A DNA stretch of 62,801 bases, filler included, from Folioceros fuciformis (Eukaryota): assembly GCA_049999805.1 (NCBI GenBank). It is 6 parts of 6 records of this genome, joined end to end, with 100 filler letters (N's around TTAATTAATTAA, not from the genome) between each part and the next. Parts side by side here need not be neighbours in the genome. Positions count along the whole stretch, not along the records: positions 1 to 14,532 come from JBNGIO010004414.1; 5 more parts are not named here. One strand, 5' to 3'. The notes beneath the pieces are model-generated. The model was not told where the DNA came from and searched no databases. It worked only from the letters and a program-made list of their open reading frames with translations. Below, piece by piece: positions 1-31,146 of the stretch (its first letter is position 1; each line of letters starts with the position of its first letter). The position numbers and the translations under genes are program-made.

Positions 1-250
1 TTGGAAGTTTTTGGTCCTCTTCCAACAAATCGTCTGAAACATAATTAGTTATCAAACTCTTCCCTCTTGGAAGTTTTTGGTGCTCTTTCGACAAATCGTC
101 GGAAACATCATTAGTTATCATACTCTTTCCTTTTAGAAATTTTTGTTGCTCTTCCAACATATCATTCAAAATACAATTGCTCATCATAGTCTTCACTTTT
201 GCAAGCTTTTGGCACTCTTCGAACAAATCATCCCAAATATAATTCATCTC
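1..250. repeat. Degenerate ~70-bp tandem repeat
   Basis: The unit ttggaagtttttggt..ctt..acaaatcgtc.gaaacat.attagttatca.actct occurs at 1 and 68, with decayed copies to about 250. Confidence 0.6.
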
Positions 251-983
251 CATTGTAAAATATATGTTTTCAAAAATTATAAAAGAAAGAGTTTTAATAA
301 AATATTGATAAAAAAAATCTACGTGAGAAAAATCGTATTCACGTTCACCAATGACAAATTTCTGTAGTACGGTCAAAATAAAATTAGTAAAAAGATTATA
401 TGATATAANNNNNNNNNNNNNNNNNNNNNNNNNNNNNNNNNNNNNNNNNNNNNNNNNNNNNNNNNNNNNNNNNNNNNNNNNNNNNNNNNNNNNNNNNNNN
501 NNNNNNNNCAATGAGAGCGACGTTTTAAAACATTCATCCAAAATCATACATATATTTAGGGGCTCCCTATACAAATTGATAAAAAAAACAATTAATTTAT
601 ATAATTACATAGTAAAAGTTAAAAAAACTCATCACCAAGATATATAAAGATTTTCAAAGCCAAGATAAAAATTACCGTTAAATAAAATAACAATCTTTAC
701 CCATAAGATAGAAGAGTAAAAAAAATGTACCAATATAGTTCTAAAATATAGACCATAAAGTGCATATATAGTAGTAGGTGCTAATATATAGTAATAAGCC
801 TAATTACTATTTAACCGAGAGCTTTAACCGAGAACAATTCATGTGATATAAGATGCACCGAAGAGTCCATTTGTGATGAGTTTCGAACGCAACACACCGC
901 GAGTTCGAGCCTGAGTCGAGTCCTTTTGTTGCAGGAGGTTGAGAAATACATTGGCCTGTCGAAAGGTGGGTAGGTGGATGATT

Positions 984-2777
984 CTAGAGCCTCCGCGACT
1001 GCAATGGCATCGATGCGTCCGCAAGAAGAGCCTGGGCGGCTCGCTTGCCCGAGACTAGGGCGCCATGGTGGGTGGCATGGTCCCGGTGGTCACCGCACAC
1101 GTACAGCTTGTCGCCCAGCCTCACCTCGCGGGCGATGTCGGTGGGAGCGTCCTGATTGGGTTGTCCGTACACTATCTTGTAGCTGCGCAGAAACTTCCAT
1201 GGCTGAACCACGGACGCCCCGAACCAGCCCGCGAGCTCCTGCTTCACCGCTTCCTCCAGCCCCTCCTTGTCCCAGTCCGCGGCCCCCAGCCTCAAGGACA
1301 CGCTTACCAGGCATTTGCCGGGGGGCGCATACGATGGGGCGACGTTGGACACCGCCACCACGCTGTTCACGACACCGTTCCTGGATCCGTTGAGGTAGAG
1401 CAGCGGTCCGGCGTACGGGGCCTCGTCTGCGGAGTAGTAGAGCGTGATGGAGTTCCGGGGCGGCCGAGTCACAGGGGCGCTCGGCGGGAGCGCGTCTCCC
1501 AAGAGACGGGCTGCCTCGGGGCCCTCTACTGCGATCACCACCCCATGCCGGCTTCTGACAATGCTTCCGTTCTCGAGCTTCACGCCCGGGGTTCCGTCCA
1601 GCAGGAGGGCGGAGGCCCGGGAACTGAACCGGATAGCGCCCGCCGGTAGCCGCTCCGCGAGCTGCTGCGGGATGGCCCCCATCCCCTCTGCGGGAAGCAC
1701 ATTTCTGCCCACCGCGAAAGTGCGGAAGATGAACTGGTAGAGGCGGGACGAGGTGCTGAGCTCGTAGTCGAAGAAGACTCCTCCGAAGAAGGGACGGTAG
1801 AAGGCGTCGATCATGGACTGGGAGAACCCCTCCCGTTTGAGACGCTGGAGGGTGGGTTCCTCGTCCGCGTCATTCAGAATGTCTTCCGCGGACCGGGAGG
1901 AAGCTTTCAGCCTGCGTGTGAAGAGTGGGCGAGGAAGAGTTGTTAGGTCCCTTCCAAAGAAACAAAGGGAAGGCAAGCAAAGCTTGAGTGAGGATGGCGT
2001 GTTTTGGGAGTAGAGGTAGTACCTCACGTTGCATACCAGGAGCTTGTCCAGCAGCGAGCCCACGGGGTTGAAGATGGAGAGGATGGAGTCCACAGGATGG
2101 CGCAAGGGGTCGGCCAGGCGGTGGAAGCCGTCGTCCAGCCTCACCATGGCTCCGGCGTAGAACTTCTGGAGGTTCAAGGCCTCGTAGTCCAACACCTCCT
2201 GCGTCTCAGGGTAGCCGGAGAGGAGTAGCTGGAATCCGCGGTCCAGCTTGAACCCCTGGTGGAGGTCGGTGCGCACTCTGCCCCCGACGCCGTCCGAGGC
2301 TTCCAGGAGCAAGAAGGGAACGTCGGCCTGCGACAGCACACGGGCTGCAGCCAGCCCCGCCAGGCCTGCTCCCACGATTACCACCCCAGTCTCCTCTTCC
2401 AGGCCTTTTTCCGCATCGCTGCTGCTCCCTGCGCTGCTGGGCCTGTCGTCTGTGGACACAGCCGCGGCCCTGGTGGTGTGGGCCTTCCGCACTCGCCAGC
2501 ATTGCGCCGCTTCAGGTGCGGTTGGTCTCACTGCGTTCAGTCCGGGCTTGCTTTGGAGTAGGAAATGGACTTCGGATTTGATGCTGGCAGACTTAGGCTG
2601 CCCCTTGTCCACGGACTTGGGGGCGAGGTGAGTGCCGGCATAGCAGGCTGGGCTGGAGAGCAACATCCTAGCCTGGCCAAACTCGCTGTGAGTCACACGC
2701 GATCCGGGGCTCTGCTGGCATATAAACCTACTCTGCACTGTCGCTATCTCAGCCTTCAGCTTTGTGAGGAAATACAT
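984..2777 (-). CDS. FAD-dependent oxidoreductase, amine oxidase family, probably plastid-targeted; two exons
   Basis: Rossmann motif VVIVGAGLAGLAAA..LLEASDGVGGRVRT, DRGFQ, and C-terminal LYVCGDHR..HGALVSGKRAA. An in-frame 111-nt GT-AG intron is predicted at 2022-1912. The N-terminal extension is transit-peptide-like; the true start may be the Met near 2665. Confidence 0.9.
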   Translation of the reverse strand: MYFLTKLKAEIATVQSRFICQQSPGSRVTHSEFGQARMLLSSPACYAGTHLAPKSVDKGQPKSASIKSEVHFLLQSKPGLNAVRPTAPEAAQCWRVRKAHTTRAAAVSTDDRPSSAGSSSDAEKGLEEETGVVIVGAGLAGLAAARVLSQADVPFLLLEASDGVGGRVRTDLHQGFKLDRGFQLLLSGYPETQEVLDYEALNLQKFYAGAMVRLDDGFHRLADPLRHPVDSILSIFNPVGSLLDKLLVCNVRYYLYSQNTPSSLKLCLPSLCFFGRDLTTLPRPLFTRRLKASSRSAEDILNDADEEPTLQRLKREGFSQSMIDAFYRPFFGGVFFDYELSTSSRLYQFIFRTFAVGRNVLPAEGMGAIPQQLAERLPAGAIRFSSRASALLLDGTPGVKLENGSIVRSRHGVVIAVEGPEAARLLGDALPPSAPVTRPPRNSITLYYSADEAPYAGPLLYLNGSRNGVVNSVVAVSNVAPSYAPPGKCLVSVSLRLGAADWDKEGLEEAVKQELAGWFGASVVQPWKFLRSYKIVYGQPNQDAPTDIAREVRLGDKLYVCGDHRDHATHHGALVSGKRAAQALLADASMPLQSRRL

Positions 2778-5145: not shown

Positions 5146-8100
5146 ATGGCATCCGCGTGTTACAACAACAACTGTGCCTCGTTCTCCTTTTCTGCTCAGA
5201 AATTACCGACCCCGAAGCACGGAAGAGGTGTCAGCACCGTCGTCCATGTTACAGCATTAGAGAACCGTCATACAAGTGCAGATAAGGCAATGGAAGTGGA
5301 GAGGCTCTGGGAACAGCTGTTCTCCAATCCTGCTGAATGGTGGGACAACAGAGCAGGCAAGGTGCGATCTTGTTCGTTTCTTCGGGCTCTCCTCATTCAT
5401 GCGCCGGTCCTTTGGATGCTCGAATGCGAGAACGATGTTGATTACTCTGATATTTTGCTCTCTGTGCAGAATCATAGGAAAGTTCCTGACTTTCGACACA
5501 AAGTCTCCAAGGAAGGCTTGTGGGTTGATTGTGAGCTGAATCCCAGCTGGGTCCCATCGAAGTTGGCTTCCTTTTACAGAGATAAACATCAGGGCTCGTC
5601 TTGCAAAGGTCTGCAACATCTGTTCATATTCTCATGTCAGGGATGCAGACAATCCAGAATGCGGTCTTTACGGGAATTTGTTGTCATCCCCGGACTTGGT
5701 TCATGACAGGTGTTGACGAGCATACACCAGAAAGGGAAAGTCTTTCCCGGCCATACTACTCCTCAGGATGCTCTCAGAATACAGACCGGATACCCCGTTC
5801 CGAGTCCAGGAGTGCAAGGAGCCAAGAAGAACTCCGGGATGAAGTGACAACTTTGCCAAATGGTCGTGCTTTTGGAGTCGAGAATTCATCACGTACCGGG
5901 TTAGTGGATCACCTAATCAGTAACATCACTTAGGTTGTGGTGATTTGAAGCTGCGGAAAAGCATAGCATCAGATTGTCATCCAGAGTTTACATGCCAGTC
6001 AACATTATCTGTCAACTGTTGTCACTGACAGGTCAAACACTGGGGCTGCATCAATGTCAACACAGGTCGCAGGACAATCTGGTATTGAAGAACTTGTGTA
6101 GGGACGGACGACTGAAGGAAGCAATTGCTGCATTGCAGCGGATGCACCAGCAGGACAGAATGCCTTCGGTTGAAGCTTACAGCCACGTTTTGCAGGGGTG
6201 CATGAAGATGAAGGCTCTAGCTGAGGGCAAGCAGCTACATGACTTGATCGTGAAAGTTGACTTGGAATTGAACAGCATTATTGGCCCCTCGGTTGTGAAC
6301 ATGTTCATAGAATGTGGGAGCCTCTCAGATGCGGCCCACGTCTTCAACAGCCTGTCCCAACGTACGACTTCCTCCTACATGGCAATCATCTTGGGTTATG
6401 TGAAGTGTGGAGCTGAACTCAAGGCTTTGAACATGTACCAGCGAATGGTGCAGGAAGGGGTGGAACCAAACAGATCAATCTTTGTGAGCCTACTGAAAGC
6501 CTGTGGCAACTCATCAAATCTGGAACTCGGGAAAAAAATTCATGCTGACGTCAACAGAAGTCGTTGTGCAGCCGACGTGTTTGTGGGTACGGCTTTGGTG
6601 TGCATGTATGCCAAATGTGGTCGCATGATGGATGCCAGACGTGTGTTCAGCACATCTTACAAGCGCGATGTGGCGTGCTGGAATGCAATGATTGCTGGGT
6701 ATGCTCAGCAAGCACAGAATGAACAGGCATTGCAAATATATTTTCAGATGCAACGTGACGGTGTTATACCAAATCTTCGCACCTATGTTAGTGTATTGAA
6801 GGCATGTGGTGGCCTGGCATCAACAGGGCCCCATGACCAAGTGGTTAAGCTGGATTGCCTCCAGAAGGGAAAACAGATTCACAGTGAAGTTGTCAGGAGG
6901 GGTTTTGCAACAAATATTTTTGTGGCTACCACCCTGATTAGCATGTATGCAAACTGTGGGAGCACGCTGGACGCATGTTCTGTATTTGACACTCTGCCCC
7001 AGCGTGATGCGGTAATTTGGAATACTATGATAGGCTGTTTCATTCAGGAGGACCAAAGTGAAGAGGCTCTGCAACTTTTTGGCAAAATGAAAGACGCGGG
7101 TGTCCCTGCGAGTAGTAGAACCTATGTCAATGTACTCAGAGCATGTGGCAGCCTGGGAATCAAGGAAGATGGCATTGCGACCCATGGGACATTAGTGAAG
7201 CCGGACTCCCTGCAAAGAGGAAGGGAACTGCATGCTGAGATTGTTGAGGCAGGCTGTGCGCTGGATGCAAACATTGGCAGCAGTTTGATTGATATGTATG
7301 CGAAGTGTGGGAGCATGACAGATGCACAGCAGGTATTTGAAACATTGCCAGAAACAAATGTGGCAGCATGGACTGGAATGATCACTGGTTACAGGCAACA
7401 AAAGGACATCAACCGGGCTTTGCAATTGTACGCAAAAATGCTGGAGAAAGGTATTGTGCCAAATAATCGGACTTTTGTGACCGTGCTGAAGGCATGCAGC
7501 AGTCTGGCTGCCGTGGAAGAAGAGCTGGTTATAGATGGGGAACGAGTTAAGCCAAAATCTCTTGCAAAGGGCCAGGAGATCCACGAGGAGATCGTCAGGA
7601 GAGGGTATGCATCGGACACGGTTGTTGGAAATATTCTTGCTGCCATGTATGCAAACTGTGGATGCATGAAGAGCGCACAGCAGGTGTTTGACGCGTTATG
7701 CCACCGTGATGTTGGATCATGGAATGCAATGATCATTGGATATGCTCATCAAGATCGTGGGGAGCAAGCTTTGCAACTATATTCCAAAATGCAAAATGAA
7801 GGTGTTATGCCCGATAGTTGGACCTTTGTGAATTTGCTCACTGCATGTGGTACAATGGGAGCATTGGAAGGGGCCACTGCAGTTGATGGTGTCTATGTGA
7901 AAGCACAATGTTTGAGAAAGGTGATGGAGATACATAAGGAAGCGTCCGGAGCTGGGTTTGAAACAAATGCGTTTGTTGGTGCCACGCTTATAGACAGGTA
8001 TGCGACCTGTGGGAGCATGATGGATGCACAGCAGGTCTTTGACAGGTTTCCGCAGCGTAGTGTGGTGGCGTGGACAGCAATTATTGGAGGATACGCCCAA

Positions 8101-10794
8101 CAAGCACAAGGTGACACAGCCTTGCACCTGTTTTACCGGATGCAGGAGGAAGGGGTAAAACCAAACAACCGAACGTTTGCTTGTGCTGTAAAAGCATGCA
8201 GCAGTTTAGCAGACTTGGAAGAGTCTACTGTTGTAAATGGAGCACACGTTAAGATAAAAAGCTTGCGAAAGGGTGAAAGGTTGTATACTTACATTTTAAA
8301 TTCTCTTGATCAATTTGATACGGTGGTTGGTAATGCCCTTGTTGACATGTTTGTAAAATGTGGGAGCATGGACAGAGCAGAGCAGGTTTTTGAGACCATG
8401 CCAGCTCGCAATGTTGGGACATGGACAGCAATGGTGGCAGGATATGCTCAGCAGGAACTAAATCTCAAGGCTTTGCAACTGTATAGTCGAATGCAGGATG
8501 AGGGTGTGCAGCCAAACCATCGGACCATTGTTTTTGCTCTGAAAGCTTGTGGTGCCCTGGCAGCCAAAGAAGGAGCCACAAATGTGTGTGGAGAACTGAT
8601 GAAACTAGATTGCTTACAACAAGGGAGACGAATACATGCTGATAGTATTAATGCTGGTTGCGAGTCAGATGCATTTGTTGGTGCAACGCTTGTTGACATG
8701 TATTCAAACTGTGGCAGTTTGGTGGAGGCCCGTCATGTTTTTGACAGAATGACGGACCGGGGAGTGGTGGCGTGGACAGCAATGATAGCAGGGTATGCCC
8801 AGCGTGCGCAGGGTGAGAAGGCTTTGCAATTGTATCAGCAAATGCGGGATGAAGGTGTTAAGCCAAATAGTCGGACCTTTGTGTGCACCCTCAAAGCTTG
8901 TGTTAATTTAGCAGAAGTAGGAGAGTCGATGCCTGTGGAAGGAGAGCTACCTATAGAACGGGCCCTTAGGATGGGCAAAGAGATACACTCTGACATCAAT
9001 GAGAGGGGCCTGGAAATGGACCCGTTTGTTTCTGCCAGCCTGGTTCAAATGTATGCAAGCTGTGGGCGCATGCTGGAAGCGCAGCGTGTTTTTGACGCAT
9101 TGCCCAGCCGCGATGTCGCAATGTGGACAGCGATGATTGCAGGATATGCTCAACAGGGGAAAGGTGAGAAAGCCATCCTATTGTACGAAAGGATGGGGAA
9201 GGAAGGCGTCCCTCCAGACACATGGACTTTAGTCAGTGCACTAAAAGCTTGTTGCAGGCTTGCAGGCAAGGATCAGGCTTCTGTTGTGGATGAACAATGT
9301 ATCAAGACAGTGTGCCTGCAAAAGGGTAAGGAGCTACATGAGGAGGTTATCCGGAGGGGTTTTGGGCTGGATTTGTTTGTTGGTGCCAGTCTCGTCAGCA
9401 TGTATGCGAGCTGTGGAAGCATGGAAGATGCACAGCGAGTATTTGACTCGTTGCAGCAGCATGATGTGGTGTTGTGGACAGCAATGATAGGAGGATATGC
9501 CCACTGTGGAGAAGGTGAGAGAGCTTTGCAGCTATATACACAAATGCAAGAGGAAGGACACAGACCAAACAACAGGACGTTTGTGAGCTTACTGAAAGCA
9601 TGTGGCAGCTTGGCAGTCAAAGAGCAAGCTACCCTAGTGAATGGACGATCGATGAAACTAGGAAGCCTGGACAAGGGACGGGCAATTCATGCCGAGATTG
9701 TGGAAACTGGCGTAGAGCTGGACATGTTTGTGGCCACTACTCTTGTCGATATGTACGCAAAATGTGGTAGCATGGTGGATGCACATCGGGCTTTTGACTC
9801 CCTGACCACGAGAGACGTCGTGTCATGGACAGCCATGATTGCAGGATATGCTGATCTAGAGCAGGGCGAGCGGGCTGTTGAATTGTACCGTCAGATGCAA
9901 GAGGAGGGTGTGAGGCCAAGTCAGGCAACATACCTGAGCACCCTCCAAGCATGCAGCTGCGCAGGAGCGCTCGAAATATGTTCCGAAATCCATCAGGATC
10001 TCATCCACAGCGGACTGGGTACCAATGCCAGGCTTGCAACCTCTCTGATCAATGCATATGCAAAATGCGGCAGCATGGTGGATGCTCAACACGTCTTCGA
10101 CACGTTCCGACAGCAATCTTCCGGACAGCACGATGTGTGCTCTTGGACTGCGCTTATAGCAGGGTACGCTCGTCAGGGCAGCGGTCTCCTGAGCTTGGAG
10201 TGCTTGAACCAAATGCAACAGGCAGGGATCAGGCCAGACGGAGTGACAGCCTTGTCCGTACTTGCAGCCTGCAGCCACGCAGGCCTGGTGGACGAGGGCT
10301 TGGAGTACTTCGAGTCATTGAGCAAACACGACACCACCACCCTAACAGTCGACCACTACACCTGCCTGGTGGACCTCCTGGGACGCGCAGGACTCTTCAA
10401 CAAATTGGAGCAGCTGCTGCTCCTAATGCCCATGCAGCCTAACATCGCCCTGTGGCTCTGTCTTCTAGGCGCCTGCCAGAAACACAACAACCTGGAGCTG
10501 GGACGTCGGGCCTTCGAAGAAGCACTCCTCCTCGATCCAGCACAGTCGGCCCCGTACCTCCTCATGTCCAACATCTACGGCAGAGCAGGCATGTGGGAGC
10601 AGGCCAGAAAAATCGACTATCAACGGAGAGCCGCAGGTGCGTGGAAGCAGCCAGGCTTGAGCTGGGTGGAACACGGAGGCCAAGTGCACACGTTTGGAGC
10701 TAACGATACCCAAAACACCGAAACACCAAAGGTGCTGGCCAGGTTGAAGGAGCTGGACGAGGGGATAAACCGCCAAGTACAGGTTGGCGGTTAA
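5146..10794 (+). CDS. PLS-class PPR RNA-editing factor (LL motifs, E1-E2-E+, no DYW) with predicted upstream exons encoding a transit peptide and an OSB-type PDF motif
   Basis: The 5974-10794 ORF has repeated P-L-S triplets, P2-L2-S2 (VLAACSHAGLVDEG), E1/E2 and a PG box (KQPGLSWVE), then stops. Predicted exons 5146-5361, 5470-5608 and 5710-~5899 join in frame by GT-AG introns. The PPR body is certain; the 5' exon model is inferred. Confidence 0.9.
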
Positions 10795-10915: not shown

Positions 10916-10946
10916 GGAAGGAAGGAAGGAAGGAAGGAAGGAAAGG
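10916..10946. repeat. (GGAA)n microsatellite
   Basis: ggaaggaaggaagg... lies between the PPR stop and the next ATG. Confidence 0.85.
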
Positions 10947-10976
10947 CGTAGCTGCTGATCGTCGCGGGGTGCGAGA

Positions 10977-12263
10977 ATGTGGCAGGGGGTGCGGAACCAG
11001 GCGGCGGTGGCGTGCTTTGAGTACGCTCGGGAAGCCGGGCTGATCCCGGGCCAGGTTGCGGACAATAAGATCAAGACGTGGGTTCCCGACACACTGAAGG
11101 CGGAGCTGGTGGCCTACGTCCTGCAATGGCACCGGGCGCTGCCGCTGCGCGGAATAATCATCGGGCAGTCCCCGACATCGTGCGACAAGGGCAGCCCAAG
11201 CACCACTGAGACGGCCCCGCATCTGGCCGCCAGCTTGGCCTTCCGGGAAGGAGTGGAGCCGCCGGCGGCGTCCGACATCCTGGTCAACGAATTTCGCCTC
11301 TGCGGGAAGGACGGGGCGGAACCTTTAGAGGCTGTGCGGGACTGCTGGAAGCTGGTGGATCACGGCGTGTTGTCGGTGCACGCGCTGCCGCTGGGCATGG
11401 AGAACCGTTTCGACTGGTCCCCAGCCACGGAGAGCGACACGGCGCAGATGCAGGCCTTGGCGCGGGTGCTGTGCCATCTCGTGTCTCTGAGCGCGGAGAT
11501 GGGACCCCGCGGGAGCACACGGGTGGTGGCCATGGGGCGATGGGCGCACGACGTGGCTTCGGAGCTACGGCGCCAGTTCACCGAGCGGCTGCAGGCCGGG
11601 CAGAGCAAGTTCTGGACGCTGGACATCCGCGGGTCCCTGTCGCATCCCATCCGCACCTGGCACAAGTTCCACTCACGCACCCCGGACCACATCACTATGG
11701 GCCGCGAGGAGGACCTGCTCGCGCTCTACGACCTCTTCGTGTCCGGGAAGCCCCAGCAGCAGGGCAGCCAGCACCTCAACGGAAACGGAGCCGGGAACGG
11801 TAACGGGCACTGGCACCCCCCCGTTCCGTCTCTCCCCGACAGGTGCTCCACTCCCGCGCCGGAGCCGAGAANNNNNNNNNNNNNNNNNNNNNNNNNNNNN
11901 NNNNNNNNNNNNNNNNNNNNNNNNNNNNNNNNNNNNNNNNNNNNNNNNNNNNNNNNNNNNNNNNNNNNNNNCGGCGGCATCGGGAGCGTGCGCTCCAGCT
12001 TCACCTTCGGCAGCTCCCCGGCGGATAGCTGCAACATAATCGGCTATGGCGGCGGCCTGATCAAGCCGCCTGAGGACTCGCACTCTCAGTCGCAACCGCA
12101 TGTCCTCAAGGAGCTCCAAATCGAGAGCAACATCAGCAACCTGGGCCTGAATGGATCCACCGGGGCCAACTCCGTGTGGCCGGAGCGCGGCCTCAAACCC
12201 AGGGTCGACCGCGCCTCGCCCGTCTTCCGAGGCGACCTGCAATCTCCAGCCCGCCACTGGTGA
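10977..12263 (+). CDS. Orphan GC-rich ORF with a divergent uracil-DNA glycosylase (UNG/UDG superfamily)-like motif order; interrupted by an assembly gap
   Basis: About 298 open codons precede the gap at 11872-11971. Motifs occur in UNG order: GIIIGQSP, ASLAF..GVEPP, DHGVLSVH, VVAMGRWA, SHP. Frame continuity across the gap cannot be verified. Confidence 0.5.
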   Translation: MWQGVRNQAAVACFEYAREAGLIPGQVADNKIKTWVPDTLKAELVAYVLQWHRALPLRGIIIGQSPTSCDKGSPSTTETAPHLAASLAFREGVEPPAASDILVNEFRLCGKDGAEPLEAVRDCWKLVDHGVLSVHALPLGMENRFDWSPATESDTAQMQALARVLCHLVSLSAEMGPRGSTRVVAMGRWAHDVASELRRQFTERLQAGQSKFWTLDIRGSLSHPIRTWHKFHSRTPDHITMGREEDLLALYDLFVSGKPQQQGSQHLNGNGAGNGNGHWHPPVPSLPDRCSTPAPEPRXXXXXXXXXXXXXXXXXXXXXXXXXXXXXXXXXXGGIGSVRSSFTFGSSPADSCNIIGYGGGLIKPPEDSHSQSQPHVLKELQIESNISNLGLNGSTGANSVWPERGLKPRVDRASPVFRGDLQSPARHW

Positions 12264-12595
12264 CAACAGCAAAACAATTAGGGTTTTGTCCCATTTAGGA
12301 GTGTGGCCTGTGTTTGGTACTGGTTCCTCGTTTCCTCAATTCCGGAGCTTGTTTCGTTCTCTGGGGGCTTCCGTCGCCTCGCTCCTTGCTTATCTTCTCC
12401 AATTGCTCATCATGTACATATGCACGTCGCATATATGTGGATCTTGTTGGACTTTTGATAAAAGAAAAAGAAATTCTTTTGCTCTTTCTATCTCAACAAA
12501 ATATAAAACTTCTATAAACAAAAACAATTTATTATTATTATTATTATCAAGATATATTAAGTCAGACTAAGGCTAGAAGACAATTAGATGGGTCA

Positions 12596-14532
12596 TTAAT
12601 TGTTATCCTTAAATCCTGAAATGCTCGTCCTTAAATTTCTCATCTTAAACAATGACTTAGCAGAATCAGATAGAGAATTATGTCTTTGTTTCTTAGCAGA
12701 TGGTCTCCTTTGATACGTAACTAAAGCTACTGCTTTAAGGTCTAGAGGAGACTTTAAAATCATGGACATTCCTTTCTGATATGTGCTCCATGCCAATAAA
12801 CTAGATCTGCGCCTAGCATTGACAGCCCTCTCTTTTATCTCGAGTTCTTGAATAACACGTCGATCATATGGAAAACGAATACTACAAAGATGTCGAACAC
12901 ATGAATTAGTTTCAAAGAGAATATGCATAACACTTTTGTGTGTTGAAGCTTCATCATGTAGTAATCAAAGCAATAACATTAAGGAGACATGGTCTACCTT
13001 CTGATTGATAAGTAGATACATGCTGGAAGCAAGAGTAAATAAAATATGAAAAACAAAAACAACCACATACAGTTCGTACTGTATAGTAGTACAAGGTTTC
13101 CTGAATAATCACCACCTACGAGATTTGGAGGCAAGGTTGGATAAAATGTGTAAAATAAACAACAAGCAAAAGCTTCAATCAACCAAACTCGAAAACCCAA
13201 CCAAGTCCAACTCTGCAAATCAAGTACGAATTGAATTAAAGGATGATCGCTTTGTAATCTTAAGCACTTGGAATAACATGCAACAATTTTAAACTTCAGG
13301 GGAAAATTATGAAATTGCCTAAACTTGTTTACCTCTGTTAAAAAGAGATATTGTAACTTTGTGATAATTTGCAAAGTAGGCACCATTACGAATGTGATGT
13401 AAATGAGTCCCCCCATTTTTCCAGTTTTGTCTACGGATCTATGCCCAAATATAGATACTATAAAAAATGGATACAACACTCCCTACAACAATCATAAAAA
13501 GTGTTAAGATGTTATATTTTTAGTATATTACACAATGGCATATTTAAGTATGTTTATGACTACGACCTCGACAAATCAGCGTTATGTTATTCATTTCATG
13601 ATCGCTGCAAAGAGAACCTGAAAAGCGCTCAGTACAATCCATCCTAGGAAAGTAACATTGGTTTGGCATTGTTGGCCCTATGTCACACCACACGAATATA
13701 TTGTTATTGGATAAACGTATGGGAAATAAACAAACTCAACATATTGATAACCTCTTTAGATCACCGCTGACCTCTTCATACATTTCTGGAAAACGTAATC
13801 TGGAAGACGCTGAGACATCTTGATCTAAGATTGATGTAAGCAGCATGGGCAGATTTCCAAATGTCATATCGTAGCTATTGTGAATCCAAATATCATCGAG
13901 TATCGATATTGAAGATCCTTTGGTTCCGTAAACGTCCCAAAGAAGTATGCATAGAGTGACAGCAAGACCTCTGAAAAAAAAAAAGTAACCTGCTATACCA
14001 AATGTGAGTTCAGATACATGGGCTACAACTATGAAGCATGAAATCTTCGTCAAAGTCACTGTACCAGCTTAAGCACTCGTTGACAACACCATGCACCATG
14101 CACCAACAGAAGGCGTTCTAAGAAATGAAATTCTCCTACCGATATGTCTGCCTCCAAATAAGCCTGTATTCATTCTTCGACGCGTAAGAAAAGTAATGCG
14201 TAAGGAAGGTAGGCGAACATTGTAGTTTGGACTACTCACTTGTTGATTTTCAATGCCCTTGATACCCACTCCTATATTCGCTTTTTGGATCATGGGAATG
14301 TCGTTCGAGCCATCTCCAATGCTAAGACAAATACATCCACTACCCTTGCGCACTAGCTCTGCGATTTCGCCCTTCTGAACAGCACTTACTCGACAACAAA
14401 ATACTGACTCGCACGCTAATGCAAGCGACAAAAATTCTTTTCTCATCTTCTTGTTTTTCATTATATATAAAAGACAACATCCATCAATAATGAGAGAATG
14501 TTGAGTTTTATTTTTATCCTTCTTAACCATTA
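12596..14532 (-). CDS. P4-type phospholipid-transporting ATPase (ALA family), C-terminal part, 5'-truncated at the scaffold end; multi-exon
   Basis: LIIDG, VFCCRVSAVQKGEIAELVR, LSIGDGSNDIPMIQKANIGVGI; the next exon reads FHFLERLLLVHG, followed by LDQDVS..RFPEMY and transmembrane exons. An intron is predicted at 14239-14164. Confidence 0.85.
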
Positions 14533-14632
14533 NNNNNNNNNNNNNNNNNNNNNNNNNNNNNNNNNNNNNNNNNNNNTTAATTAATTAANNNNNNNNNNNN
14601 NNNNNNNNNNNNNNNNNNNNNNNNNNNNNNNN
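14533..14632. other. Artificial scaffold linker N44-TTAATTAATTAA-N44
   Basis: The six-frame stop 12-mer at 14577-14588 sits within 100 nt; the same structure occurs five times in the window. Confidence 0.97.
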
Positions 14633-29034: not shown

Positions 29035-31146
29035 TTAACCTCCGCGACCAAATGGAGGTTGTTGTTGATTACCACGAGCAAATGGAGGTTGTTGTTGGTT
29101 ACCGCGACTAAATGGAGGTTGTTTTTGGTTACCATGACCAAATGGAGGTGGTTGTTGGTTACCGCGACCAAATGGAGGTGGTTGTTGGTTACCGCGACCA
29201 AATGGAGGTCGTTGTTGGTTACCTTGATCAAATAAAGCTTGTTGAGTCTGCATACCAAATGGAGGCATTTGAGCAAAGTGTGAAACGTCCATAGAAGGAA
29301 GTGGTTGCCCGAATGGTGTCTGCATAGATGGAAGACATAAAGGTGAAGAACAGTTAATTGTCATTGCATTTGTGTAAACAGTACTATTGCATATGACAAC
29401 TTGAAAGATTGCATTTGTGTAAGCAAAACTATTGCATATGACAACTTCAAAGCGTACTTGAGAAAGTATTTGTGGTTGTTGTAGTTGCACACTTGGCAGA
29501 CCTCCAGATGCTTCTTGCAAAGGTTCAGCGTTGTATACACCTTGTTTCAAGAAGACAGGATGCGCTTGCGTTTGCATGTTTAAAGTGGAACAACTAGGTA
29601 GTAACTCTATACTTGGAATAATTCGAGCTTGTTCATGTGCTTGTGCGTCTTGCATAGTGGAAAGAGTGCTTGGAGGAATATGTTCGGGCTTGTATGGTAC
29701 ATCCAAGTTTGGAGAAACTTGAGCTGGGATGTGCGGGAATCTATTAGGATATGGTAATTGTTGTCTTTGTTGTAGTGATTGTACAAGTTGTATTGTTTGA
29801 CCTATACGAGGTTCCACTTGTGGAGACTTAGTAGGAAGTGGTGGTCGGGTGTTCCATATTGGTGCTTGATTAGTAATTGGTTGTTTTAGAGTGGAGGATC
29901 CTTGGGGACGAATTAAAGGGTGTGGCCGACCAAGTGTTAATAGTTGTGGTTGTACACTCAAAGTTGAAAGAGCTTGAGGCAATTCCCTCTTGATGGCATT
30001 GAATTCAGCACCTGGCATGCTAGATTGTGTTGGAGGCAAGCTTGTATTAACTTGTGATCGACCATGAGAAGTATATGGTTGCACACTCAAGCTTGGTTCT
30101 ACATGCATCGACGGCCTCATACCAGGAAGAGTCCCAAATGTTGGTGCAAGAAGTTGGGAACGAGCAACACTAAAATTACTTGAGGATAGTCGTTTAGAGG
30201 ATTGTGTTGCTTGTGGTGGTCTTACCAAACTTGTATAATTCCCTATTGGTTGTCGTTCATTTGTACTCCTCACATTGCCCATAGAACTTGATGTATATTG
30301 TTCATTAAAATGATGAGCTTGCATTTGCGGAGCCACTGCTGGTGATTTGAGAGTATGTTTTTCCAACTGTGCAATCTGAGGTCTTAAGTTGGGTAAGAGA
30401 CTAGGTGCAACTTGTGGATGGATCTGTGGAAAAGGAGTGGCATTTAGTTGGACTCCTATGTGAGAAATGGATAGAGGTTCTACATAAGAGAAGGGTCTAG
30501 GGCTTTGATGTACCGTTGTAATAGGTGGTCTCCATTGAACTTGAGGAAGAGCTTGAGGCATGAGATTTGAAGTTGGCCAAATTTGGGTTGAAGAGGGAAG
30601 TGATTGTATAGATTTTGTAGTTGCACTACTACTACTTGGTGAAAATGTTGTTTGTGGTTGCAATGGTGGTGGAGGTTGTGCAATAGAAAGAGACTCAATG
30701 GGAGCAGTTGGTTGTGGTTGGGTTGCGGGTGAATCAAAAGCAATAGAAGCTATGGGAAGGGCTAGTTGTGTTTGGGCTTGGGGGGGATCTAAAGCAATTG
30801 AAAGAGTCGCAAGGGATGGTTGTGCTTGAGCTAGGGGCTGATCCAGAGCAACTGAAGGTATCATCAGTGTGAGCTTAGGCTCAGGTGCAAGTGGAACTAT
30901 TGATTGGTTTTCAGGTGTTGGTATTAATGAGACCATAGGATAAGAGGGAGGATACATGGTTGATGTAGAATATAATGATGTCATGGATTGAAGTGGATCT
31001 AAAGTGGTTAAAGATGGAGATCTTATTCTAGTTGAATTTAATGGAGATTGTGGTTGTGGTGTTGATATTGGAAATTGTGGTTGCATTGAAGATGGAGGTA
31101 GGGCTGAGAATGGTGGACGTAGTCGTGGCCACAAAGGTGGTGGTGG
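29035..31146 (-). CDS. Pro/Gln/Ser-rich low-complexity protein, partial (starts at the scaffold end)
   Basis: A 699-codon ORF stays open in AT-rich DNA. An intron is likely at ~29457-29322 and the C-terminal part has PPFGRGNQQ repeats. No folded domain is recognised. Confidence 0.55.
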   Translation of the reverse strand, partial: PPPPLWPRLRPPFSALPPSSMQPQFPISTPQPQSPLNSTRIRSPSLTTLDPLQSMTSLYSTSTMYPPSYPMVSLIPTPENQSIVPLAPEPKLTLMIPSVALDQPLAQAQPSLATLSIALDPPQAQTQLALPIASIAFDSPATQPQPTAPIESLSIAQPPPPLQPQTTFSPSSSSATTKSIQSLPSSTQIWPTSNLMPQALPQVQWRPPITTVHQSPRPFSYVEPLSISHIGVQLNATPFPQIHPQVAPSLLPNLRPQIAQLEKHTLKSPAVAPQMQAHHFNEQYTSSSMGNVRSTNERQPIGNYTSLVRPPQATQSSKRLSSSNFSVARSQLLAPTFGTLPGMRPSMHVEPSLSVQPYTSHGRSQVNTSLPPTQSSMPGAEFNAIKRELPQALSTLSVQPQLLTLGRPHPLIRPQGSSTLKQPITNQAPIWNTRPPLPTKSPQVEPRIGQTIQLVQSLQQRQQLPYPNRFPHIPAQVSPNLDVPYKPEHIPPSTLSTMQDAQAHEQARIIPSIELLPSCSTLNMQTQAHPVFLKQGVYNAEPLQEASGGLPSVQLQQPQILSQVRFEVVICNSFAYTNAIFQVVICNSTVYTNAMTINCSSPLCLPSMQTPFGQPLPSMDVSHFAQMPPFGMQTQQALFDQGNQQRPPFGRGNQQPPPFGRGNQQPPPFGHGNQKQPPFSRGNQQQPPFARGNQQQPPFGRGG
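29041..29230. repeat. 30-bp coding minisatellite, six copies plus a partial
   Basis: The unit accgcgaccaaatggaggtggttgttggtt recurs at a 30-nt period and encodes QQPPPFGRGN on the minus strand. Confidence 0.92.

Follow-up and report, generated by a model that had tools for sequence, protein, structure and literature searches.

The window analysed here is a 62,801-nt stretch of Folioceros fuciformis DNA (assembly GCA_049999805.1), and the subject is an open reading frame (ORF) on its plus strand with an ATG at 10977 and a TGA stop at 12261–12263. Positions 10977–12263 are one intron-free nuclear gene in a land-plant-type genome. The first approximately 260 residues of the product have the alpha/beta fold of the uracil-DNA glycosylase (UDG) superfamily, and the remaining 150 or so form an unconserved low-complexity tail. 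The protein belongs to a small clade of short forms homologous to long forms of 570–620 aa and, through them, to family-1 Ung. The sequence comparisons are best read as pointing to a new clade of family-1-like UDGs, predicted to have altered specificity and a slow catalysis assisted by Ser. The features of the locus are as follows.

10916..10945, no strand: (GGAA)n microsatellite between the stop of a PPR gene (10794) and the ATG of the UDG-like gene
10977..11871, plus strand: first part of the coding sequence, Met1 to Arg298 plus 1 nt, up to the assembly gap (ORF list, sequence)
10977..11771, plus strand: UDG-like alpha/beta domain, approximately residues 1–265 (strands of the AlphaFold2 (AF2) model; structural matches over model residues 6–259)
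11151..11177, plus strand: GIIIGQSPT, residues 59–67, equivalent of motif A (hhalign pairing with GQDPYP; family table)
11169–11171, plus strand: Ser65, at the catalytic Asp position (numbering; family table)
11175–11177, plus strand: Thr67, at the Tyr position (numbering; family table)
11178..11240, plus strand: loop after motif A, with about 8 inserted residues that the long forms and Ung lack (residues 67–88, pLDDT <50)
11241..11243, plus strand: Phe89, equivalent of the base-stacking Phe in GLAFSV (hhalign; family table; LAF at 11235–11243)
11259..11273, plus strand: PPAAS, residues 95–99, equivalent of the Pro-rich DNA-backbone loop (hhalign; family table)
11358–11381, plus strand: DHGVLSVH, residues 128–135 (sequence numbering)
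11364..11384, plus strand: GVLSVHA, equivalent of GVLLLN, with His135 (11379–11381) at the Asn position (hhalign; family table)
11523–11546, plus strand: VVAMGRWA, residues 183–190 (sequence numbering)
11529..11546, plus strand: AMGRWA, residues 185–190, equivalent of LLWG..A (hhalign; family table)
11640–11648, plus strand: SHP, residues 222–224 (sequence numbering)
11643..11657, plus strand: His223-Pro224-Ile225-Arg226-Thr227, equivalent of motif B (hhalign; family tables)
11872..11971, no strand: assembly gap of 100 N, with a real length of 64 nt according to one bridging contig
11972..12263, plus strand: last part of the coding sequence, low-complexity C-terminal tail and TGA stop at 12261–12263 (ORF list; GC content at third codon positions (GC3) 0.84; no Pfam family)

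The original prediction placed the ORF at 10977..11871. The start is right, but 11871 is the edge of the 100-N gap and not the end of the ORF. The gap is bridged by one 1489-nt contig of run X1, which covers 10951–11871 and 11972–12441 with 64 letters between. These are 36 fewer than 100 N and thus leave the reading frame unchanged. The product is about 416 aa, provided that the 64 bridging letters, themselves unread, hold no stop. The GC contents of the three codon positions are similar on the two sides of the gap (0.66/0.50/0.86 upstream, 0.59/0.53/0.84 downstream), as expected from one coding frame. Run X1, which is RNA only by guess, has no cover at 12480–13800, where runs X2 and X3 continue, and this pattern is not used as evidence of expression. 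A tblastn search within the window finds no second copy of the gene (best other match E = 0.9). The spacer between the PPR stop and the UDG-like ATG is 182 nt with the (GGAA)n inside it, and contigs of all three runs break at this microsatellite, so that the PPR gene and the UDG-like gene are not shown on one contig. The window has 28 runs of N, of fixed sizes 100, 44, and 10 N (e.g. 409–508, 11872–11971, and 14533–14632); at the one gap compared, the true sequence is 64 nt and not 100.

The gene set of the window, taken from Pfam and the ORF list, consists of land-plant-type nuclear genes. It includes two PPR genes, an amine oxidase, exportin-T, a legume-lectin domain, a beta-amylase fragment, and a formin FH2 domain.

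The ORF had been called an orphan, which does not hold, as six short and a dozen long relatives are found. A word-indexed search found two proteins, phmmer run exhaustively on 1.84 billion representatives gave nine at E ≤ 0.001, and two profile searches added more. The relatives carry no assigned name or Pfam domain; Pfam searches of seven relatives and of six long forms gave no UDG, and the family is not among the named plant proteins in the relatives recovered by sequence and profile searches.

The short forms are P0001–P0005 and P0010, with a domain identity to the window protein of 35–70%. P0001 shows 70% identity over residues 106–260, P0002 and P0003 cover only about 113 N-terminal residues, P0004 and P0005 are full length with approximately 40% identity, and P0010 is a fragment. 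The start MWQ is common to the window protein, P0002, and P0003. The C-terminal tail of about 150 low-complexity residues cannot be aligned with the P0001 tail. P0002 and P0003 share a 70% identity, yet all similarity ends directly past the residues LCG, and P0001 resumes at GKD. This break suggests an intron common to two related species, at a site that is continuous in the window gene.

The long forms P0011–P0019 are 571–618 aa in length and consist of an N-terminal UDG-like domain, a linker of about 300 residues rich in Ser, Thr, and Pro, and, at the C-terminus, a conserved block about 100 residues long. The head motifs are QSPYP, GxLLxN, and HPA, and the C-terminal block ends in CKExFxF. 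Grouped with the long forms are P0007 (279 aa, a shorter relative of P0011), P0008 (527 aa), and the partial P0006. Against the 1.84 billion proteins, phmmer links the window protein to P0007 with an E-value of 3.2e-5 and to P0008 with 8.1e-5.

Five motifs had been named in the window protein, in the order and roughly the spacing of UNG. All five are present at their coordinates by sequence and residue numbering, and the family profile pairs the same blocks with canonical Ung. In this alignment (hhalign, 153 columns) the window blocks are opposite GQDPYP, GLAFSV, VPASL, GVLLLN, ILWGKNAQ, and HPSPLS. It also places Ser65, Thr67, and His135 at the Asp, Tyr, and Asn positions of UNG, in agreement with the residues predicted there. 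The roles of the residues at these active-site positions are those of the UNG literature. The window sequence at motif A is GQSPT and not GQDPY. At motif B it is HPIRTW where family 1 has HPSPLS, with His-Pro kept and no Leu. The uracil-reading Asn of GVLLLN is absent, the window sequence being GVLSVH with His135. Phe89 and His223-Pro224 are kept UNG positions, and Arg226 and Thr227 replace the Pro-Leu wedge. The two UNG motifs are also given in PMC5449639.

The family table shows which of these positions vary. Among the 17 members that cover the Asp position, Ser is found in 14, Asp in two (P0007 and P0011), and Asn in one (P0008); a drifted residue is never found (Ser, Asp, or Asn in 17/17). 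The Tyr gate is Tyr in all 12 long-type rows and Thr or Ser in all five short forms. The stacking position is Phe or Tyr in every one of the 21 rows that cover it (19 family members and two Ung rows). At the Asn position, P0004, P0005, P0006, and every long-type row have Asn, the window protein and P0010 have His, and P0001 has Tyr. The motif-B His is kept in 17 of 18 members, with Asn in P0008. Ser65, Pro66, His223, Pro224, Arg226, and Thr227 are invariant across the three full-length short forms, and the short forms have HPxRT where Ung has HPSPL, together with the roughly 8 residues inserted behind motif A.

The window protein is not the canonical UNG, as had been predicted: neither PF03167 nor the NCBIfam ung models give a match, and for PF03167 and TIGR00628 there is none at E-values up to 10, so that the curated family cut-offs are not reached. 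Homology to Ung is instead traced by profiles, A2 for the whole family (12 sequences), A3 for the long forms, and A5 for the short forms. The metagenome scan for long-form relatives also gave L002 and L003, both ordinary Ung genes of bacteria, and L002 (Pfam UDG at 4.6e-13) serves as the reference Ung. A5 matches A3 with a probability of 99.1% (E-value = 5.1e-19, 184 columns) and A3 matches the L002 Ung with 92.1% (E-value = 6.3e-7, 169 columns). The whole-family profile A2 aligns with the L002 Ung, motif paired with motif, at a probability of 82.9% (E-value = 9.2e-6, 153 columns). The single protein P0011 matches it with a BLASTP E-value of 1e-7. Four of the five long forms tested match only 'ung' models in NCBIfam (E-value = 2.8e-5 to 4.1e-4), at scores of 20–24 bits where the model cut-offs are 162–186. 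As direct tests fail and the chain of profiles from short forms to long forms to Ung is significant, the homology to family 1 is real but transitive, and it is only in this transitive sense that sequence homology to the UDG superfamily is established. In the ESM Atlas, the best clusters are bacterial hypothetical proteins (0.91), followed by a phage cluster in which 12% of the members carry UDG (0.89), which is a lead only.

The predicted UDG-like alpha/beta fold is borne out by AF2 and Foldseek, which matches the model to UDG structures. AF2 with the 12-sequence alignment A2 gives a model with pLDDT 72.4 and pTM 0.75. Strands are placed at residues 59–63, 131–135, 179–186, and 213–221, between helices, with low confidence at 67–88 and from 260 on. 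The predicted domain is a four-stranded parallel beta-sheet flanked by helices and can be superposed along its full length on solved UDGs. The motifs are situated as in UDGs, with strand 59–63 followed by GQSPT at 63–67 and strand 213–221 followed by His-Pro at 223–224. In the Foldseek search against the PDB, ranks 1–49 are all UNG or SMUG1 entries among the matches listed (best E-value = 3.8e-4), with SMUG1 level with UNG. In a viral structure library, too, UDGs lead the matches (Pithovirus at 5.8e-4, entomopoxvirus, and herpesviruses), and they resemble the model no more closely than cellular UDGs do. The agreement of motifs and fold with UDGs exceeds chance.

The protein probably handles DNA bases in a way not yet described, to judge from its active-site positions. 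The loss of the Tyr gate in all five short forms and the variable Asn position suggest a pocket that is no longer uracil-specific. The Asp position always carries a water-binding side chain and the His is nearly always kept, thus catalysis appears modified and not abandoned. In the scheme proposed for the window protein, the Pro-rich and motif-B loops would clamp the DNA and the base would be flipped into the pocket, with Arg226 acting as the wedge that fills the gap in the helix. His223 would stabilise the base as it leaves, and Ser65 would hold a water in place of the Asp-activated one, in the manner of the Asn of the MUG/TDG and SMUG1 families. A pocket without the Tyr gate could admit 5-substituted pyrimidines, and slow turnover would be expected. 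Taken jointly, the flipping, the His223 leaving-group role, the Ser65 water, the Arg226 wedge, and the opened pocket make a tentative scheme, slightly less likely than not to be right.

Several results weigh against this reading. UNG without its Asp loses activity by orders of magnitude. The variety at the Asn position (His, Tyr, Asn) looks like relaxed constraint on base recognition, which would fit a non-enzymatic role too. Recognition by sequence is poor, as Pfam gives only STAS_2 on the window protein (E-value = 0.042), none of the three short forms tested matches an NCBIfam model, phmmer and profile searches of PDB sequences give no UDG, and the short-form profile A5 reaches a probability of only 0.3% against Ung, so that the short forms alone miss it. 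The structural model is mediocre (Foldseek TM 0.3–0.5, rmsd 4–5 Å) and may be biased toward the UNG-like long forms within its alignment. As loop 67–88 is unmodelled and carries the insertion, the geometry of the pocket is not given by the model.

The main rival is a protein that has kept the fold and the DNA-gripping loops and only binds DNA (damaged, modified, or ends), as a reader or tether. It owes this place to the variable Asn position, to the tether-like build of the long forms, whose linker of about 300 residues and conserved C-terminal domain suit a tethering protein, and to the precedents of poxvirus D4, which is part of a polymerase processivity factor, and of polymerase-fused UDGs; UDG domains as processivity factors, fused ones included, are discussed in the PMC3201878 text. 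The absent catalytic Asp and Tyr gate point the same way. Binding alone should not need Ser, Asp, or Asn at the Asp position in 17/17 members and a His kept in 17/18, however, and the window tail is unconserved, with no partner domain seen by Pfam and no partner known. A binding-only protein is judged unlikely, though a serious competitor. The near-invariant Ser (14/17) might also define a new UDG chemistry or role. Ser could be a sugar-trapping nucleophile that links the protein to DNA, as a eukaryotic counterpart of UdgX, or the UDG head could belong to a replication tether, with a 300-residue linker and a C-terminal docking domain in compact DNA elements not described so far, of which a plant lineage would have captured a copy cut to the head alone. 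These two options, even taken together, are speculative and improbable. The least probable explanation by far is a chance ORF or decaying pseudogene with an accidental resemblance to UNG. The lack of a direct family match, the useless single-sequence AF2 model (pLDDT 36.6), and the assembly gap inside the ORF would be in keeping with it; conserved relatives, the fold match, and the profile chain are not. The conserved start, a domain that is 35–70% identical while the tails cannot be aligned, the strong codon-position bias, and the in-frame bridging contig show a real gene.

As to origin, the original prediction took the GC-richness and the lack of introns as foreign signs, and this argument is rejected. 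The GC3 of 0.86 is close to that of the amine oxidase (0.78) and the lectin (0.82) of the window, and the AT-rich downstream 'neighbour' used for comparison is intergenic DNA. Other window genes also carry long intron-free ORFs, and the relatives, with their shared LCG break, appear intron-bearing. Derivation from the UDGs of nucleocytoplasmic large DNA viruses (NCLDV) that occur in mosses is rejected as well, as the moss genes are of the GQDP type in the published alignment searched.

A domesticated foreign gene remains a rival as to origin only, and is compatible with either an enzyme or a binding-only protein: the plant clade would come from a hitherto undescribed compact-genome element or DNA virus with a long form. 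In a tree of 19 rows (P0002, P0003, and P0010 omitted as too short), four short forms are one clade (100/100) on a long branch of 2.39. This clade joins P0006 and P0008 (81/75, 91/92), within or beside an unresolved long-form radiation, with Ung as outgroup on a branch of 4.95. The joining nodes are weakly supported and the branches long, thus no order of events can be claimed from the tree. One of the long forms, which are the nearest outgroup of the short clade, lies on the 2.4-kb AT-rich metagenome contig L001 at 1237–2433 (plus strand). It starts 11 nt past the end of an uncharacterised Cys-rich ORF of 327 aa at 242–1225 (plus strand), for which the ESM Atlas, viral contigs, and PDB phmmer gave no identification; a minus-strand ORF starts near 147. 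The 11-nt spacing, the AT-richness, and the divergent neighbour suggest an arrangement typical of viruses or other compact genomes, and the absence of the family from the named plant proteins among the recovered relatives also favours a foreign source. However, scans of viral contigs with P0011, A3, and the L001 ORF1 confirmed none of 5, 24, and 5 pattern matches, respectively; phage tblastn gave no relative; and these three scans, the one phage search, and BFVD together show no specific viral relative. The locus is flanked by ordinary plant genes with its GC3 in the local range, and the relatives appear to carry an intron. A foreign source is judged doubtful. A scan of genome contigs with A5 confirmed 0 of 54 matches.

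Other observations concern the neighbouring regions. The upstream PPR gene (5974–10794, plus strand) is intron-free and encodes 1606 aa of the PLS class; an E motif stands at the C-terminus, and no DYW domain is seen. Contigs of many paralogues stack on its PPR repeats in all three runs. At 10580–10584, one contig in each of the three runs drops base 10580 and adds a C after 10584. This difference is a 4-nt local frame shift in the 3′ end of the gene, and an allele, a paralogue, or a minor error of assembly could account for it. The ORF at 29035–31134 (minus strand) has 699 aa, no Pfam family, and a GC3 of 0.22 against 0.47–0.86 in other window genes; this coding region may derive from a transposon or be foreign in some other way.

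If the preferred reading of a family-1-like UDG clade with altered specificity is right, a clade with the UDG fold that every family model has overlooked would enlarge the set of proteins concerned with base excision or base modification in plants. With no Tyr gate, the open pocket might allow the protein to act on thymine-like or modified pyrimidines. The long relatives, with a UNG-like pocket and Ser for Asp, mark this as a recurrent, conserved design, which allows a direct test of how far UDG catalysis needs Asp. The case also illustrates how a rare family can be placed only through a chain of intermediate sequences followed by folding. The literature searched (bioRxiv supplements and subscription journals lie outside its scope) contains no description of the family, or of GQSPT, GQSPY, or QSPYP in a UDG context.

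Among known systems, the NCLDV-like UDG genes integrated in moss genomes (PMC4083422) resemble the window gene in being UDG-superfamily genes in the genome of a non-flowering plant. They differ in that, according to PMC4083422, they are canonical UNG-type genes in viral gene clusters, whereas the window gene lies among plant genes. The UDG alignment of that paper (supplement file 7; 12 of 15 files searched) contains 'GQDP' 78 times and 'GQSP' 0 times. UdgX is a UDG that crosslinks itself to DNA, as described in PMC4787834 and PMC10776899. It is structurally more distant from the window protein, and its family-4-type motifs and crosslinking His loop are not evident in the alignment, although no search was aimed at them. 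With poxvirus D4, a processivity subunit acting with A20, and with the UDG fused to phage family-A polymerase, the comparison differs in that no A20-like or polymerase partner is seen here, with no test aimed at one. D4 keeps glycosylase activity.

SMUG1 (family 3) and MUG/TDG (family 2) have no Asp, and a neutral polar residue holds the water; they have an Arg-type wedge and accept 5-substituted pyrimidines. This Asp-less water handling is the working model for the window protein. However, the motifs GMNPG/HPSPRN and GINPG of these families are not seen in the window protein, and the sequence link runs to Ung models only, SMUG1 being compared by structure. Plants have UNG, with a TDG homologue in green algae, and the non-flowering mosses, ferns, horsetails, and gymnosperms have a SMUG1 homologue that is still uncharacterised (PMC10573277). 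The family reported here is not among the plant UDGs listed there.

The likeness is probably closest to family-1 UNG. All five conserved blocks occur in the UNG order and spacing, the stacking aromatic and the His-Pro of motif B are kept, and the long relatives match only 'ung' models. The window protein differs from it by Ser for Asp, Thr for Tyr, His for Asn, and Arg-Thr where Pro-Leu lies, by some 8 residues inserted behind motif A, by a disordered tail about 150 residues long, and by the lack of any PF03167 or TIGR00628 score. With SMUG1 compared by structure, the family is rated as a new and highly divergent clade within a known superfamily.
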